Virus genome (UHGV): UHGV-0274194
Strand: one strand, 5' to 3'
Length of the DNA stretch: 6,845 nucleotides
From: a virus
The stretch's first letter is position 1. Each line of letters opens with the position of its first letter. The notes beneath the pieces are model-generated. The model saw only the letters and a program-made list of their open reading frames with translations. It had not been told where the DNA came from and made no database searches. Below are positions 799 through 6,845 of this stretch, piece after piece. A program made the position numbers and the translations under genes.

Positions 799-1065
799 TC
801 ATGCGTCATAGCCCCGGTTACGTTCGGCAATGCGATCCGCCATCCATGCAGTGATTTCAGACTGCGCCCACGCCACATTTTTTCCGCCGAGGGAGATTTG
901 TTTCGGGAAGGCTTCCCGGCTGATGAGGTCGTAAATGGTCGAGCGGGACAGGCCGCACAGATGCATCACTTCGGGCAGACGGATAAAGCGCTCGTGAACG
1001 GTATCAGAAACCGGCATCAGAGGCGCGGCAGGGGCAGAAGACGGGGAAGAAAAAGCAGTGTGCAT
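799..1065 (-). CDS. alpA: AlpA-family phage transcriptional regulator (HTH, Vis/excisionase-like)
   Basis: The 88-aa ORF core ([48 protein letters not shown]) matches the AlpA/MerR-like prophage regulator pattern from memory. ATG 1065 has a GAGGT SD; an alternative start at ATG 1017 would give 72 aa. Confidence 0.8.
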
Positions 1066-1533: not shown

Positions 1534-1605
1534 ACGGCAATGAATCGTGTTGTTGTGTCCGGCGCGGCAGAATCTCCTCAGATTGAAACGAAGAGGAGAC
1601 CCGAC

Positions 1606-2343
1606 ATGACTCATACCGCTGTTATTCCCGACTACCTTAAACCCGCAATCGAACGGCTTGAGACGGCCAGAGAGGAACATCTCATTAATGCCCGACACAT
1701 GGATGAAACCACGGCGGCCATCAGCCAGGTGAAAGCACAAAAAAAGGAACTGGAGCAGGAAAACGGCAATGATTCCGGCGCATGGCGCGCCGCCTTTCGT
1801 GCCGGTGGTGCTGTCATTACCGATGATCTGAAACAACGCCATCTGGCGCGCGTGGCACGGCGGGAACTGGCGCAGGAATGTGACAGCATGAACGAGGTAC
1901 TATCTTTTGAGTTGGACAGACTCAAAGGAGCCTGTGACCGCACGGCCAGAGCATACCGTCAGGCACATCACGGCGTCCTCAGTCAGTATGCAGAGCATGA
2001 ACTTGATGCATCCCTGCGTGAAAGCTGCGGTGCCCTCATCAGAGCAATGAAACTCAACATACTGGTTCTGAATAATCCACTTGCTAATACGACCGGGCAT
2101 CAGGGATATATCGAACCGGAAAAAGTTGTAATGCAGCAGGTGAAAGCATGGCTTGAACAGGCCGTAAAGGGCTGCAATATCCGTCTGACCGATGAACCGG
2201 TGCTGTTTAAAACAGGGCTGTCGGCTTCCACACTGCCGCATATGGAACATGACGTTGCGACCACGCCCGGTCAGCGAAAAGTCTGGCAGGAAAAAATGTG
2301 GGAACGTGAAGCTGACCTGAAAGCACGGGGGTTATTGTCATGA
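1606..2343 (+). CDS. sid: Sid, capsid size determination (external scaffold) protein
   Basis: 245-aa ORF with an AGGAG SD 8 nt upstream of ATG 1606. Position immediately upstream of, and coupled to, the Ogr/Delta gene, plus a length close to P4 Sid (about 244 aa). The ORF-track start at 1540 lacks an SD. Confidence 0.8.
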   Translation: MTHTAVIPDYLKPAIERLETAREEHLINARHMDETTAAISQVKAQKKELEQENGNDSGAWRAAFRAGGAVITDDLKQRHLARVARRELAQECDSMNEVLSFELDRLKGACDRTARAYRQAHHGVLSQYAEHELDASLRESCGALIRAMKLNILVLNNPLANTTGHQGYIEPEKVVMQQVKAWLEQAVKGCNIRLTDEPVLFKTGLSASTLPHMEHDVATTPGQRKVWQEKMWEREADLKARGLLS

Positions 2344-2585
2344 TGCGCTGCCCTTTCTGCCGCACAGCGGCACACGTTCGCACCAGCCGCTATATGTCTG
2401 ACAGCGTCAAAGAGAGTTACCTACAGTGCCAGAATGTGCACTGCTCGGCGACATTCAAAACGCATGAGTCCATCTTTGAAGTGATACGTTCGCCGGTCGT
2501 CGATGAGAAACCCGCGCCGGTGCCGACAGTCCCCGTGGCACCCCGTCGGGTAAAAGGCTGCTACAGCTCGCCGTTCCGCCATTAA
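2340..2585 (+). CDS. delta: Ogr/Delta-family zinc-finger late transcriptional activator (single-domain, 81 aa)
   Basis: Cys4 motif C4-x2-C7-x22-C30-x4-C35 (CPFC...CQNVHC) exactly fits the Ogr/Delta pattern. The start overlaps the sid stop (ATGA). Confidence 0.85.
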   Translation: MMRCPFCRTAAHVRTSRYMSDSVKESYLQCQNVHCSATFKTHESIFEVIRSPVVDEKPAPVPTVPVAPRRVKGCYSSPFRH

Positions 2586-2601: not shown

Positions 2602-3168
2602 GTGACCACTCTGACCTTACAGCAGGCCTATGACGCCTGTCAGACGAACAAAACCGCGTGGCTGAACCGTAAAACCGAACTGGCCGCCGCAATGCAGGAA
2701 TATCAGGAATTATTGCTGGATGACAATGCATCAGGCTCCCGCAGATTACAGACGCTGCGTGACCTGATTGACGTAAAAAAATGGGAAGTGAATCAGGCCG
2801 CCGGTCGCTACATCTTCTCGCATGAGGAGGTGCAGCGCATCAGCATCCGTAACCGGCTGCATGATTTTATGCAGCAGAACGGCGCAGAGTTGACCGCCGC
2901 ACTGGCACCGGAGCTGATGGGGATTAAAAACCAGCCCGCGATGATAAAGAATCGCGCGCTTGACCGTTCAGTTTCTTACCTGAGAGAAGCTCTTTCCGTC
3001 TGGCTGACCGTTGAAAATGAAATTAATTATTCTGCACAGGATAAAGATATTTTAACGGCCATCGGATACAGGCCTGACGCGCCTTCGCGGGATGATAATC
3101 GTGAAAAATTCACCCCTGCACAGAACATGATTTACACCCGTCGACGTGCCGAACTGGCCGCGCAGTAG
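2602..3168 (+). CDS. psu: Psu, polarity suppression protein (Rho antagonist / capsid decoration)
   Basis: 188-aa ORF with a GTG start preceded by AGGAGA. Length and position after delta match P4 Psu (about 190 aa), and the sequence looks Psu-like from memory. Confidence 0.85.
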   Translation: MTTLTLQQAYDACQTNKTAWLNRKTELAAAMQEYQELLLDDNASGSRRLQTLRDLIDVKKWEVNQAAGRYIFSHEEVQRISIRNRLHDFMQQNGAELTAALAPELMGIKNQPAMIKNRALDRSVSYLREALSVWLTVENEINYSAQDKDILTAIGYRPDAPSRDDNREKFTPAQNMIYTRRRAELAAQ

Positions 3169-3214
3169 CCTGTCAAAAAATCCCCGTAAATCCCGCTATT
3201 TTTAACGAAATAAG

Positions 3215-3241
3215 CCATGCATCCATAAGGTGCATGGTTTT
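3215..3241 (+). terminator. Probable intrinsic terminator of the sid-delta-psu operon
   Basis: 7-bp perfect stem CCATGCA / TGCATGG with a 9-nt loop, followed by TTTT, 47 bp after the psu stop. Confidence 0.5.
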
Positions 3242-3573
3242 GCATGCGTTTTCTCGCTCCGGCATGACAGACCAGCGCCAGTCGTGGCGCGGCCTGAGAC
3301 CACCTTTGCACCTGCATTAAAAGCGGCCCATTAAGCGGGCAGGCGTGGCGGGGAGAGCATTGCGCGCTGGCCTTCTATCTAATAACTTTGGGTTAAAGTA
3401 AGTCACAAGGTCAATGAAAGCTTTGTGAGATACAGATAAGCTATAATTGCTGCGATTGTGAATTAATCAATCGGGATTAGCACCATTTTCTTGTGTAACA
3501 TAAAAATTTCGGTAAACTCATTCTAAAAACTCGTGAAAAAATAATTATAACTCTATTCTTAGGAGGGTGTATT

Positions 3574-4212
3574 GTGTTGAATCCTGATGATTTGGATGAG
3601 GGTGTTTATCCAGATTGCTACTGGAGTTATATAGGGCAAAAGGATTATTTGAAGCCTAACACATACTTACAAGATGCAATTGATGATTTGAATTCAGGAA
3701 GTGAACGCCGAAATATGAATAATGCAGTGCGAAATGCAAAATCGGCATTACATATGAGAGTGGATATTCTTTGTCGAGCTTTTTGTGGCCGCGAATATTT
3801 CCAAAGGAATCTAAGGAACTTTCCAAAAAAGATGGATTTCCTAGAGGGAATTGGAATAGTTAGACCTAGAATAATTGATAAAATAAATAAAATAAGAAAT
3901 GAAATTGAGCACGAGTATCGAGATGCAACTCTTGAGGAAGCAGAGGATTTCATAGATATAGTTTTATTGTTTATGGAAGCAACTAGATATTTAAATTCAA
4001 GGTTTCCATGTGAAGTTGACTTCCATGGATTGGCAGTTTCTGATGAGGTTTATTTAAGGAGAGTAGTATGCAATTGGGAAGGTGGAGAATTACTTTTTTA
4101 CTATTCAAAGCAAGAGTCACGCCGGCTTGATAACGTGCAAACCTACTCAATAAAAGTGGGTGATTATAGATACGCTCGGTGGGTAAAATTCATTCTAGAT
4201 CATTGCGATTGA
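3574..4212 (+). CDS. Cargo protein, 212 aa, putative HEPN-domain RNase (HepT-like RNxxxHxY motif); function unverified
   Basis: GTG start with a strong SD (AGGAGGG, 6-nt spacing). Motif I-R108-N-E-I-E-H113-E-Y115 equals Rx4HxY in a predicted helical context. About 30% GC, far below the flanking core. A perfect TATAAT at 3442-3447 upstream has no good -35. Confidence 0.6.
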   Translation: MLNPDDLDEGVYPDCYWSYIGQKDYLKPNTYLQDAIDDLNSGSERRNMNNAVRNAKSALHMRVDILCRAFCGREYFQRNLRNFPKKMDFLEGIGIVRPRIIDKINKIRNEIEHEYRDATLEEAEDFIDIVLLFMEATRYLNSRFPCEVDFHGLAVSDEVYLRRVVCNWEGGELLFYYSKQESRRLDNVQTYSIKVGDYRYARWVKFILDHCD

Positions 4213-4249
4213 TATACTATTTGTCCTAACTCACTAAAATAAGTATTTT

Positions 4250-4276
4250 AGACCGAGCTAGGCGTAGCCTCGGTCT
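4250..4276. terminator. Hairpin between the convergent cargo genes (candidate bidirectional terminator)
   Basis: 8-bp perfect stem AGACCGAG / CTCGGTCT with an 11-nt loop, sited between the stop of the plus-strand gene (4212) and the stop of the minus-strand gene (4285). The flanking U-tracts are weak. Confidence 0.45.
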
Positions 4277-4284
4277 AAGTGTTA

Positions 4285-5310
4285 TCAATTTGCCAATGCA
4301 GCAACTAATCTTGCTAATTCATTGAAATTACTACTGAATTCTTTTCTGTTTTCTTTCATCGTATCCAGTATTACTCCATTTTGCTCTATTTGTGCATCTG
4401 AGAGGGCGAATACCGGCGTGCTATGTTTTTGAGATTGAGCAATTAGTGAGTTAAAGTCAGAAATATTCGCCAAATTAAAGGGCTCTTTTGAGGGACAGGC
4501 ATTTTCAAAATCAGTAACCGAAATTGACATATTGATAGGATTTAAAGCTGGTATTAATGTATTAGTGACCTCATCTTTGATAATATCAATCCATCTTTGA
4601 AATGATTTTACTGGTAAATTATTTCTTGGACGATACTTCTGAGATATAAATCCGATGAATTTCGGCGGATCAATAGGGAATGGATATAATATTCCACTAT
4701 CTCTAAAGTTATTTATCTCGCTGTTCCATCTAGGAAGAACTTTTGCGAGTGACTTTATTGCCTGAGCACAGAAAAAATCTGGTGATGTAGGAACTATAAA
4801 ATAGTCACTGCACATTAAGAGACATTCATTTAATGCACCAACGCTGGGGCTCATGTCAATAAGGACATAATCAAATTCATGTTTGCGCGCAGTCTCACGC
4901 AAAAAAGCTCCGATGCTGCCGGGGATATTTCTAATTGCGGGAATAGCAGCGCTGGTTGTCAGCGCAACTCCAATCTGTGTTTCAATTTCTGATAAATAGA
5001 TGCTACCACACAATAAACTTAAATTTGGATTTGTTGTGACTAATGGGTCGGATGGTATAACTTTTCCTAAAGAACCATCTACAACAGGTTTGATGCAACT
5101 ATAAATATCACAGTTTGGATTGTTTTTATAGATTTCATCAAAGTCATCAGTGGTCGAATAGCCCAAAGCTAAGGCTGTCAAATTACATTGTGGATCAGCA
5201 TCAACTATTAAAACTTTATAGCCAAGATTAGCTAGCATCCACCCCATGTTAAAAGTCGTGGTTGTCTTACTAACACCACCTTTATGATTAAATAAAGATA
5301 TTATTTTCAT
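4285..5310 (-). CDS. ParA/MinD-like P-loop ATPase (deviant Walker A), 341 aa, with a long C-terminal extension
   Basis: N-terminus FNHKGGVSKTT is a deviant Walker A (KGGxxK[ST]); A' motif VLIVDADPQ; Walker B FDYVLIDMSP. AAGGA SD 7 nt upstream of the ATG. About 36% GC. Confidence 0.8.
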   Translation of the reverse strand: MKIISLFNHKGGVSKTTTTFNMGWMLANLGYKVLIVDADPQCNLTALALGYSTTDDFDEIYKNNPNCDIYSCIKPVVDGSLGKVIPSDPLVTTNPNLSLLCGSIYLSEIETQIGVALTTSAAIPAIRNIPGSIGAFLRETARKHEFDYVLIDMSPSVGALNECLLMCSDYFIVPTSPDFFCAQAIKSLAKVLPRWNSEINNFRDSGILYPFPIDPPKFIGFISQKYRPRNNLPVKSFQRWIDIIKDEVTNTLIPALNPINMSISVTDFENACPSKEPFNLANISDFNSLIAQSQKHSTPVFALSDAQIEQNGVILDTMKENRKEFSSNFNELARLVAALAN

Positions 5311-5332
5311 TCGAAATCCTTAATAGAAATTA

Positions 5333-6499
5333 TTACTTTAAAAGATAGTTGCTATACCACTGAAGCATTTCCCTTCTTCTTTCAAGGTATTGAGCATGAT
5401 TATATGTTCCTCGAATACTATTCTTATCAACATGAGCAAGTTGCAACTCAATCCATGCACTATCAAACCCTTGTTCATGCAATATTGTCGACATTGTATG
5501 TCTGAAACCGTGACCTGTAGCACGACCTTTATAACCCAGTAGTTCAATTACTTGCGACACACTCTCCTTAGATATTGGTTTGTTACGGTTGTTTCGCCCA
5601 ATAAAAATGTAAGGATAGTGTCTTGTAATAGGTTTTAGTTGGTTAAAAAGATCAACGACTTGTGTTGATAGAGGGATAATATGGGGTCTGCGCATTTTCA
5701 TTCGTTCTGCGGGGATTTCCCATAAACCTCTCTCAAGGTCAACCTCATCCCATGCTGCAAAGCGCATCTCTTGAGTTCTCACACCGGTGAGCATAACTAT
5801 CTTTGTTGCATTTTTCGTTATGATGCTACCGGTATACGCTTCGAGATCCTGAATAAAATGAGGCAATTCTTCGGCAGATAGAAATGGATGATGTTTTTGT
5901 TTAGGAACGGCCAGAGCGATGGCTAAATCAGGCGCAGGATTGTATTCAGCGCGGCCAGTTATGATTGCGTAGCGATAAACCTCACCGCACCTCTGACGCA
6001 CCTTACGTGTTTTCTCTAGTGCCCCACGCTTCTCTATTCGTCGCAATACTTCAAGCAGTTCTAACGGTTTGATTTCACTGATAGGGCGTTTACCAATGAA
6101 CGGGAACACATCTTGCTCAAATGTCTTAATGATTTCTTCGCGATAGGCCACTGTCCAGCGGTCAGCTTTGTTAGTGTACCATTCTCGACATATGGTTTCG
6201 AATGAGTTCTCTGTTGAGAGTTGCTGTGCCAGTTTTTGGGCTTTACGTTCTCCCACTGGGTCTATGCCGTTTGCTACCTGCTTACGAGCGGTATCGCGTT
6301 TCTCACGTGCTTCTGCGAGGCTCACAAGGTTGTAGCTGCCAAATGACATTAGCCGTGCTTTACCGGCAAAACGAAAGCGGAAGCGCCAGCCCTTTGAGCC
6401 GTCTGGATTGATGAGTAATGACAGGCCTTGTCCATCGTTCAGTGTGTAGGGTTTGTTTTGGGGCTTTGCTCGTTTAATTTGTATATCTGTTAGTGGCAT
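5333..6499 (-). CDS. int: P4-type tyrosine site-specific integrase (selC-targeting family)
   Basis: 388 aa. The N-terminal arm-binding region ([24 protein letters not shown]) is typical of P4-like integrases, and catalytic-core motifs are present (R in GVRTQEMR, HxxR in GHGFRHT, LAHV, Y in RGTYNHAQY). It is adjacent to and co-oriented with the tRNA 3' end. Confidence 0.9.
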   Translation of the reverse strand: MPLTDIQIKRAKPQNKPYTLNDGQGLSLLINPDGSKGWRFRFRFAGKARLMSFGSYNLVSLAEAREKRDTARKQVANGIDPVGERKAQKLAQQLSTENSFETICREWYTNKADRWTVAYREEIIKTFEQDVFPFIGKRPISEIKPLELLEVLRRIEKRGALEKTRKVRQRCGEVYRYAIITGRAEYNPAPDLAIALAVPKQKHHPFLSAEELPHFIQDLEAYTGSIITKNATKIVMLTGVRTQEMRFAAWDEVDLERGLWEIPAERMKMRRPHIIPLSTQVVDLFNQLKPITRHYPYIFIGRNNRNKPISKESVSQVIELLGYKGRATGHGFRHTMSTILHEQGFDSAWIELQLAHVDKNSIRGTYNHAQYLERRREMLQWYSNYLLK

Positions 6500-6660: not shown

Positions 6661-6728
6661 TGGCGGAAGATCACAGGAGTCGAACCTGCCCGGGACCGCT
6701 GGCGGCCCCAACTGGATTTGAAGTCCAG
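6661..6728 (-). tRNA. selC: Truncated tRNA-Sec (selC): the 3' 68 nt only (anticodon arm with UCA, long variable arm, T arm, 3' acceptor strand with GCCA); the 5' acceptor strand and D arm are missing
   Basis: The reverse complement CTGGACTTCAAATCCAGTTGGGGCCGCCAGCGGTCCCGGGCAGGTTCGACTCCTGTGATCTTCCGCCA matches the 3' portion of E. coli selC as recalled. The TCA anticodon and long extra arm are visible. The match stops abruptly at 6728. Confidence 0.8.
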
Positions 6729-6845
6729 AACGATGGACAAGGCCTGTCATTACTCATCAATCCAGACGGCTCAAAGGGCTGGCGCTTCCGCTTTCGTTTT
6801 GCCGGTAAAGCACGGCTAATGTCATTTGGCAGCTACAACCTTGTG
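6729..6845 (+). repeat. Perfect inverted duplicate of int codons 21-59 (partner arm 6323..6439), fused to the truncated selC and running off the window; possibly the 5'-truncated start of a second, oppositely oriented integrase
   Basis: Manual base-by-base reverse-complement comparison of 6323-6439 with 6729-6845 gives 117/117 identity. It translates on the plus strand as [39 protein letters not shown], with no in-frame start codon upstream. Confidence 0.9.

Follow-up and report, generated by a model that had tools for sequence, protein, structure and literature searches.

What is a ParA/MinD-type ATPase gene doing directly downstream of the integrase gene of a P4-like satellite, and does its product act alone? 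The question is raised by UHGV virus genome UHGV-0274194, a stretch of 6,845 nucleotides that was analyzed at its full length (the window), in which positions 4285 to 5310 encode such an ATPase on the minus strand. Comparison with complete Escherichia coli genomes showed that this gene and a convergent gene for a 212-amino-acid (aa) protein, predicted to have a HEPN fold, make up the entire exchangeable cargo between psu and int. The location of the cargo in an anti-phage hotspot, the intact ATPase residues, the selection apparent on both genes, the recurrent pairing with HEPN genes, and the inheritance of the two genes as a block suggest that they form an abortive-infection or toxin-antitoxin-like module, a reading to which we assign a probability of about 0.5; it draws further support from other members of the ATPase subfamily, which lie beside PADLOC candidates (PDC-S21 and PDC-S43) and CI-type repressors. 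A first, sequence-only reading of the window had called the ATPase gene an orphan. That label is weakened by the finding that the ATPase and HEPN genes are the whole cassette and by the recurrence of ParA-HEPN pairing elsewhere, although it keeps some force in that the nearest relatives of the ATPase do stand alone.

The exchangeable cargo between psu and int

P4-like satellites carry one small exchangeable cassette each, and most of the cassettes tested so far protect against phages. In the window, the GC content drops to 0.33 to 0.40 across positions 3301 to 5500, compared with 0.50 to 0.60 in the P4 core, and the ATPase and HEPN genes are equally low. The 2-kb cassette was found in only 4 of 5,426 complete E. 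coli genomes; in 94 further genomes the match to positions 3300 to 5332 stops within the first 68 to 71 bases, just past psu, so that the flank is present in 98 genomes and the cassette in 4. Because E. coli homology ends at this point in the 94 genomes, the 2-kb block is what varies at the psu-int locus. The sequence-only reading had taken the ATPase gene to be cargo rather than a canonical P4 gene, with a search of E. coli genomes beside P4-type integrases as its check, and both the low GC content and the rarity of the block bear this out.

The psu-int locus of P4-like satellites has been described as a hotspot and reservoir of anti-phage systems (Rousset et al. 2022, PMC9122126), and supplementary file 2 of that study includes the exact pair found here (WP_087897310 and WP_032254743) among the hotspot contents. 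Term searches of the same paper and of a 2026 follow-up preprint returned no passage in which the pair is discussed or tested. Supplementary file 6, which covers P2 hotspots, contains a different ParA-like ATPase (KGGVGKS type) beside a RelA_SpoT-domain gene, so that there, too, a ParA-type ATPase is paired with an enzyme resembling a toxin.

The convergent pair was met again in a P4-like satellite of Edwardsiella piscicida, in a Serratia marcescens island whose remaining content is a colicin module, and in an Enterobacteriaceae metagenome-assembled genome (MAG), with the same convergent orientation in every case. The MAG has an apparently disrupted integrase of only 47% identity, against 87 to 88% for the ATPase and 67 to 69% for the HEPN protein. 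The two genes thus stay together despite a changed integrase and a changed remainder of the island, and are inherited as a block. Ratios of nonsynonymous to synonymous substitution rates (dN/dS) of 0.04 to 0.10 for the ATPase gene, obtained against the Edwardsiella, Serratia, and MAG copies, and of about 0.15 for the 212-aa gene point to strong purifying selection on both.

The ATPase and its HEPN neighbor

The gene is an ATG-initiated open reading frame (ORF) whose 341-aa translation has KGGVSKTT at residues 10 to 17, DADPQ at 37 to 41, and VLIDMSP at 149 to 155. Its coordinates, motifs, length, and 22-bp distance from int had been read correctly from the letters, the strand, then unstated, being the minus strand. 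The assignment to ParA/MinD-like ATPases likewise stands: the deviant Walker A motif KGGxxK[ST] with its N-terminal signature lysine, the Walker A' and B aspartates, and the predicted fold are those of the ParA/MinD (SIMIBI) superfamily, and Pfam matched AAA_31 (E = 1e-31, residues 1 to 200) and CbiA. Residues K10, K15, T16 to T18, D37, D39, D152, S154, and P155 are invariant in an alignment of 55 homologs with 61 to 87% identity, and the protein retains all the residues that the ATP-dependent sandwich-dimer switch requires.

The protein is about 80 to 90 aa longer than Soj-type ParA proteins (chains of 244 to 264 aa), which the sequence-only reading had attributed to an extended C terminus, perhaps a separate domain, with a frameshift artifact as a finding that would refute it. 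The AlphaFold2 model (predicted local distance difference test [pLDDT], 87.3; predicted template modeling score [pTM], 0.89) instead has a single, continuous alpha/beta domain, in which strands 217 to 224 and 279 to 283 extend the central sheet, insertions lie on either side of Walker B, and a long helix ends the chain. Profile alignment placed the Walker B aspartate at 152, compared with 118 to 142 in Soj proteins, with about 10 to 30 extra residues before Walker B and about 60 after it. Foldseek aligned the entire chain to Soj, ParA, McdA, and MinD structures (240 to 265 residues), and these proteins also account for most of the top 50 among the 237 PDB chains at E ≤ 0.001 (probability, 1.00; target-normalized TM, 0.45 to 0.74). 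A separate C-terminal domain was ruled out, since the model shows a single ParA fold carrying insertions and Pfam, NCBIfam, PHROGs, and PADLOC returned nothing separate. Among more than 5,900 protein-database clusters at E ≤ 1e-10, the best 120 are nearly all 340 to 346 aa long, save for a few fragments and longer forms, and the subfamily as a whole (340 to 360 aa) carries the signatures HKGGVSKT and DPQCNL. When residues 200 to 341 alone were searched against 1.84 billion representatives, only 252 clusters were recovered, and in the full-length hits (about 340 to 360 aa) the matching part is at the same place, about positions 206 to 340. Invariant residues in the 55-sequence alignment span F7 to F325 and include, in the second half, F218, G220, Q224, R227-P228-R229, W240-I241-D242, N279, N282, and D285-F286-N287-S288-L289. 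As length and C-terminal residues are conserved across phyla, to the last helix in homologs of 340 to 346 aa, and the dN/dS values are low, a frameshift or fusion was also ruled out; the extra length consists of insertions and a long terminal helix and is the norm of the subfamily. The ORF encodes a real, intact ATPase of the ParA/MinD type that is under selection and belongs to a distinct, long subfamily.

The convergent 212-aa protein has a weak Pfam match to HEPN_RiboL-PSP (PF18735; E = 0.003, below the cut-off). Its AlphaFold2 model (pLDDT, 85.6) comprises a helical HEPN core (about residues 27 to 136) and a C-terminal beta domain (about 143 to 194), with HepT toxins among the best structural matches; sacsin, AbiA, Csm6, and LsoA were also listed in the comparison. 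R108, N109, E112, and H113 do not vary among 23 sequences, the motif R108-N-E-I-E-H113 being of the Rx4H type; the protein is predicted to have the HEPN fold, and its Rx4H motif is intact. The family is narrow, with 25 clusters whose named sources are all Enterobacterales, and it had no matches in IMG/VR.

ParA/MinD ATPases dimerize on ATP, the signature lysine reaching across the interface, and the active form of HEPN RNases is a dimer with a composite Rx4-6H site. As the residues for both are intact here, we propose that the ATPase gates a HEPN RNase. The ATPase would be a nucleotide-dependent sensor or regulator holding the HEPN protein in check, whether by sequestration, by conformational control, or by phosphorylation; phage infection would lift this restraint, and the freed HEPN dimer would then cleave RNA and arrest cell growth.

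Linkage to HEPN genes elsewhere and competing readings

A scan of GTDB with one genome per species (100,044 species) recovered at least 586 relatives of the ATPase among the 600 pattern matches listed, distributed over many bacterial phyla and one archaeal MAG (Nitrososphaera). Among the best 80 of these loci, on which the neighborhood counts are based, 39 have a gene for a protein of about 200 aa directly downstream of the ATPase gene on the same strand, mostly with an overlap of 1 to 17 bp or at most 6 bp apart, the extremes being an apparent overlap of a few tens of base pairs and a gap of about 190 bp. These operonic partners match PF18735 above the threshold (E = 1e-10 to 1e-14) and carry an RRNKIAHE motif. 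The same operon was present in 11 of the 80 IMG/VR contigs examined (176 hits in the viral contig collection). In a neighbor-joining tree, the HEPN-operonic ATPases form one clade, sister to and apart from that of the window, in which the convergent 212-aa gene is confined to a terminal selC group of Enterobacterales. Since the ATPase clades are separate and the two HEPN families share only their catalytic motif, the subfamily appears to have become linked to HEPN genes at least twice.

Two further arrangements were seen. In the Pseudomonas Pf prophage AY324828, only the Soj-like "Orf317" (3995 to 5026) is annotated, and an unannotated gene at 5019 to 5546, overlapping its end by 8 bp, encodes a 175-aa PF18735 HEPN protein with the motif SRRNSIVHEAD; this is a ParA-HEPN operon at the accessory end of a filamentous prophage. 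One further locus is of a third type, with a 311-aa protein that has an RNDAIH motif.

The type of pairing was predicted in 2013, when a dyad of a HEPN protein (the "MAE_18760 family") and a ParA/Soj-like ATPase was proposed to be a toxin-antitoxin system with the ATPase as the antitoxin (Anantharaman, Makarova, Burroughs, Koonin, and Aravind 2013, PMC3710099); a database search for source names did not confirm that PF18735 is this family. Our search of the literature on experimentally tested ParA-HEPN or ParA-like defense returned only this prediction and the 2022 table entry. The pairing type and the catalogued cassette were therefore already known; the recognition of the neighbor as a HEPN protein, the convergent layout, the independent second origin of the ATPase-HEPN linkage, and the repressor-adjacent prophage niche described below are new.

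Several observations weigh against a two-gene module. The two genes converge on a hairpin in the gap between their stop codons (-20 kcal/mol, z = -3.6 on the plus strand; -21.2 kcal/mol, z = -2.7 on the minus strand), which is terminator-like in both directions and could end both transcripts. Given the convergence and the intervening hairpin, the ATPase and HEPN genes are probably separate transcription units, while known toxin-antitoxin pairs and most defense pairs are cotranscribed. This layout is as the sequence-only reading had it, with nothing downstream of the ATPase gene but the hairpin and a convergent HEPN-like gene. Comparison of the 212-aa family with the operonic PF18735 partners by hhalign gave 28 columns at a probability of 9%, covering the catalytic motif only, and no homology beyond this motif-level similarity was found. 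Beyond a P-loop hit, neither protein was matched by a PADLOC model, and the literature search found no experimental test of the pair. The 212-aa family also occurs without the ATPase, beside AbiU and in a Yersinia hotspot. In the former case (locus positions 307 to 2766), an AbiU/AIPR gene precedes it by about 100 bp, and RES, ParE/ParD, and DUF4145 genes are present in the same region. In the latter, the psu/delta-int hotspot of a P4-like satellite of Yersinia enterocolitica (locus positions 6001 to 7905), it is followed by a gene for a 389-aa protein with Swt1-like and HepT-like HEPN matches, and this cassette seems to consist of two HEPN genes without an ATPase.

The ATPase, too, is found by itself. 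Its closest relatives (80 to 82% identity), in Citrobacter, Enterobacter asburiae, and Klebsiella oxytoca, stand alone near selC, and no integrase gene was called at these loci. In Citrobacter, where the gene is 84 bp downstream of tRNA-SeC, tblastn gave no HEPN or integrase remnant beside it; in Enterobacter and K. oxytoca, neither gene is among the gene calls (no tblastn scan was made there), and DNA homology to the window is limited to the ParA ORF and the tRNA. At the stand-alone loci this homology sets in at the ATG itself, as though conservation applied to the ORF and nothing else. The downstream neighbors vary (SymE, RhuM, or a PIN/HTH pair). Some Citrobacter genomes have a complete P4-like satellite or a CbtA/CbeA island inserted between selC and the ATPase gene.

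Relatives with 66 to 73% identity in Pseudomonas, Burkholderia, and Aeromonas also lack the 212-aa HEPN gene, among them those of Pseudomonas syringae and Burkholderia prophages. A Pseudomonas prophage whose ATPase homolog is 66% identical has, downstream (locus positions 3400 to 6383), a convergent gene for a Fic/DOC protein (497 aa) and a gene for a 218-aa protein with weak DUF4145 and HEPN matches and an RNEAAH motif. In Aeromonas, a 181-aa gene (locus positions 5443 to 5988) without a family match ends 12 bp before the ParA homolog, the two forming an insert between formate-dehydrogenase-like genes and a K+ transporter gene; no homology was found between the 181-aa protein and the 212-aa protein.

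In the P22-like phages ST160 (locus positions 2759 to 5068) and SE1, a homolog (43% identity) lies between the c2 repressor gene and gene 24, after a DUF3024 gene (PADLOC candidate PDC-S43). In lambdoid prophages, the homolog is often directly downstream of a CI-type repressor, sometimes after a DUF3024/PDC-S43 gene, which is the place that rexAB has in lambda. A repressor-like neighbor cluster was seen in 29 of the 80 viral loci, and at least 14 of the loci have a protein of this cluster (about 215 to 300 aa) encoded immediately upstream on the same strand; the single member that was scanned is a repressor with a helix-turn-helix domain and an S24 peptidase domain. Another subfamily member adjoins DUF4917 (PADLOC candidate PDC-S21). 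The subfamily inhabits accessory loci of prophages, satellites, and genomic islands, and because several members lie among housekeeping genes, it is not exclusively mobile.

These distributions give weight to the main rival explanation, that two independent single-gene cargos share one hotspot, the 212-aa protein being a separate abortive-infection protein analogous to ApeA and the ATPase working alone, for example as a lysogen- or satellite-expressed factor of exclusion or immunity that is directed at incoming DNA or at a competitor's positioning system. It would account for the selected stand-alone ATPase genes in Citrobacter, Enterobacter, K. oxytoca, Pseudomonas, Burkholderia, and Aeromonas, for the P22-like phages and many IMG/VR prophages in which the gene directly follows a CI-type repressor gene without a HEPN gene, for the other neighbors of the HEPN family, and for convergent transcription with a terminator between the genes; single-gene HEPN_Apea cassettes are, moreover, listed among P4 hotspot contents (Rousset et al. 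2022, PMC9122126). Independence does not, however, explain why the pair persists through changes of integrase and island, or why HEPN genes form tight operons with the ATPase genes of a sister clade. We also know of no mechanism by which a lone ParA-type ATPase blocks a phage, and overall we regard independent cargos as rather unlikely.

The prophage niche permits a broader reading than a two-gene module, one that we advance only tentatively. The long ParA subfamily could be a general immune ATPase of temperate phages and satellites, expressed in lysogens beside a CI repressor or integrase, whose ATP-dimer switch would sense infection and which would act alone or through interchangeable effectors (two unrelated HEPN families, DUF4917, and others). 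ParA-HEPN would then constitute a new class of abortive infection that is amenable to experiment, and immunity would be added to the roles of the ParA-type positioning ATPases.

A role in partition has in its favor that the ParA fold has an intact ATPase site, that P4 is able to persist as a plasmid, and that in some integrative elements the excised form is supported by ParA/Soj genes. A conventional partition locus was nevertheless ruled out. The sequence-only reading had noted neither a ParB partner nor centromere repeats, and named an adjacent ParB gene or parS-like array as what would overturn its view. No gene for ParB or another centromere-binding protein was found among the ORFs and Pfam matches of the window or in an identical, annotated 26-kb island of E. 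coli M10, and positions 3100 to 5400 contain no centromere-like (parS) repeat array, only two chance-level two-copy repeats of 13 to 14 nucleotides. The locus is not a DNA-partition system. A partition or maintenance ATPase that stabilizes the plasmid state of the satellite through an unrecognized adaptor, or through the nucleoid directly, is highly improbable on the same grounds and on others: the gene occurs in only 4 of 5,426 E. coli genomes, although P4-like satellites are common; it is also found in prophages that integrate (P22-like and P2-like) and, elsewhere, by itself in the chromosome; and the NCBIfam partition, MinD, and BcsQ models gave best scores of 61 to 64 bits, far under their cut-offs of 180 to 348.

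The ATPase gene is codirectional with int, an AAGGA Shine-Dalgarno-like sequence lies about 7 nucleotides ahead of its ATG, and the promoter scan found no minus-strand promoter-like site near the spacer, which is too short for a promoter; the 22-bp gap and the lack of a promoter-like site within it make cotranscription with int plausible. That the ATPase is an accessory factor of integration or excision, coexpressed with the integrase and acting, for example, in recombination directionality or timing, draws on this tight junction (22 bp in Edwardsiella as well, 2 bp in Serratia, and about 23 bp in the MAG) but is hardly credible, since close homologs persist without an integrase, phage homologs adjoin a repressor gene rather than int, and the cargo at the same position is unrelated in other P4-like satellites whose integrases are related.

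If the ATPase and HEPN genes do form a defense module, the locus would make the ParA/Soj-HEPN pairing, a prediction of 2013, accessible to experiment for the first time and would show that a ParA-type ATP switch, which normally positions DNA or protein cargo, is able to gate a ribonuclease. As the subfamily is widespread, any function established here would extend to the annotation of thousands of genes that are now labeled "ParA family" or "chromosome partitioning protein."

The host element and comparison with known systems

The element is a P4-like satellite at selC with, in the E. coli M10 island, genes for a primase-helicase, DUF5375, an Icd-like protein, and AlpA, as well as a gene in the sid position, delta, psu, and int. 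The features of the window are given in Table 1. For the gene in the sid position, the window copy has no Pfam match but does match PHROG 6165 ("polarity suppression Psu-like"). Its Edwardsiella homolog has a weak Psu match, which suggests that sid and psu may be distant paralogs. At the opposite end of the satellite in E. coli M10 (locus positions 2881 to 4768), a retron St85 reverse transcriptase and its effector are encoded beyond the primase gene, and the satellite region may thus carry a second defense system outside the psu-int hotspot.

Table 1. Features of the 6,845-nucleotide window, listed from right to left
Feature	Positions	Strand	Basis
tRNA-SeC (selC), integration site of the satellite	6665-6757	-	ARAGORN; same site in related loci
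P4-type tyrosine integrase (int), 388 aa, right border of hotspot	5333-6499	-	Pfam Arm-DNA-bind_3, Phage_int_M, Phage_integrase
int-ParA spacer, 22 bp, with AAGGA ribosome-binding site	5311-5332	-	Sequence, promoter scan
ParA/MinD-type ATPase gene, 341 aa (span includes stop codon)	4285-5310	-	ORF, Pfam, alignment, AlphaFold2, Foldseek
GC-rich hairpin inside the 72-bp gap between convergent stop codons	~4247-4279	both	RNA folding
Convergent gene for 212-aa protein with predicted HEPN fold	3574-4212	+	ORF, AlphaFold2, alignment
Variable low-GC cargo cassette (HEPN gene and ParA-like gene only)	3371-5332	.	GC, E. coli comparison, Rousset 2022 list
psu, left border of hotspot	2602-3168	+	Pfam Psu, E = 2e-88
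Ogr/Delta zinc-finger gene	2340-2585	+	
Psu-like gene in sid position	1540-2343	+	
AlpA gene	799-1065	-	

The locus agrees with the psu-int hotspot of Rousset et al. (2022, PMC9122126) in position and in the variable, low-GC cassette held between conserved psu and int; it differs from the account given there, as far as the hotspot listing and the passages matched by our term searches go, in that the HEPN nature of the 212-aa protein is not recognized. With the canonical ParABS ATPases (Soj, ParF, SopA, and P1 ParA), the protein shares the fold, the deviant Walker A motif with its signature lysine, and the A' and B aspartates, whereas it has neither ParB nor parS, carries its 80 to 90 extra residues as insertions, and occupies another genomic niche. 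The best match by both sequence and structure is DIP2308 of Corynebacterium diphtheriae (PDB 3pg5; 361 aa), with E = 5e-20 over residues 1 to 201 and TM values of up to 0.68, although identity is just 22 to 24% and the C-terminal halves barely align by sequence; as DIP2308 is uncharacterized, no mechanism is gained from the match.

Closer parallels are found among HEPN-based systems. In the type VII toxin-antitoxin system HepT/MntA (HEPN-MNT), a HEPN RNase toxin is likewise under the control of a nucleotide-using partner enzyme, and HepT is a structural match of the 212-aa protein; here, however, the partner is a ParA-type ATPase rather than a nucleotidyltransferase, the genes do not form one operon, and there is no sign of covalent modification. 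The ParA/Soj-HEPN dyad (PMC3710099) differs in gene order, as the genes of the window are convergent rather than operonic with the ATPase in the antitoxin position, and in the HEPN protein, which is here from a narrow family of Enterobacterales that has an additional beta domain. What the two have in common is a ParA/Soj-type ATPase gene beside a HEPN gene in mobile or accessory DNA, with the Rx4-6H motif intact, and in the sister clade of the same ATPase subfamily this likeness extends to a tight two-gene operon.

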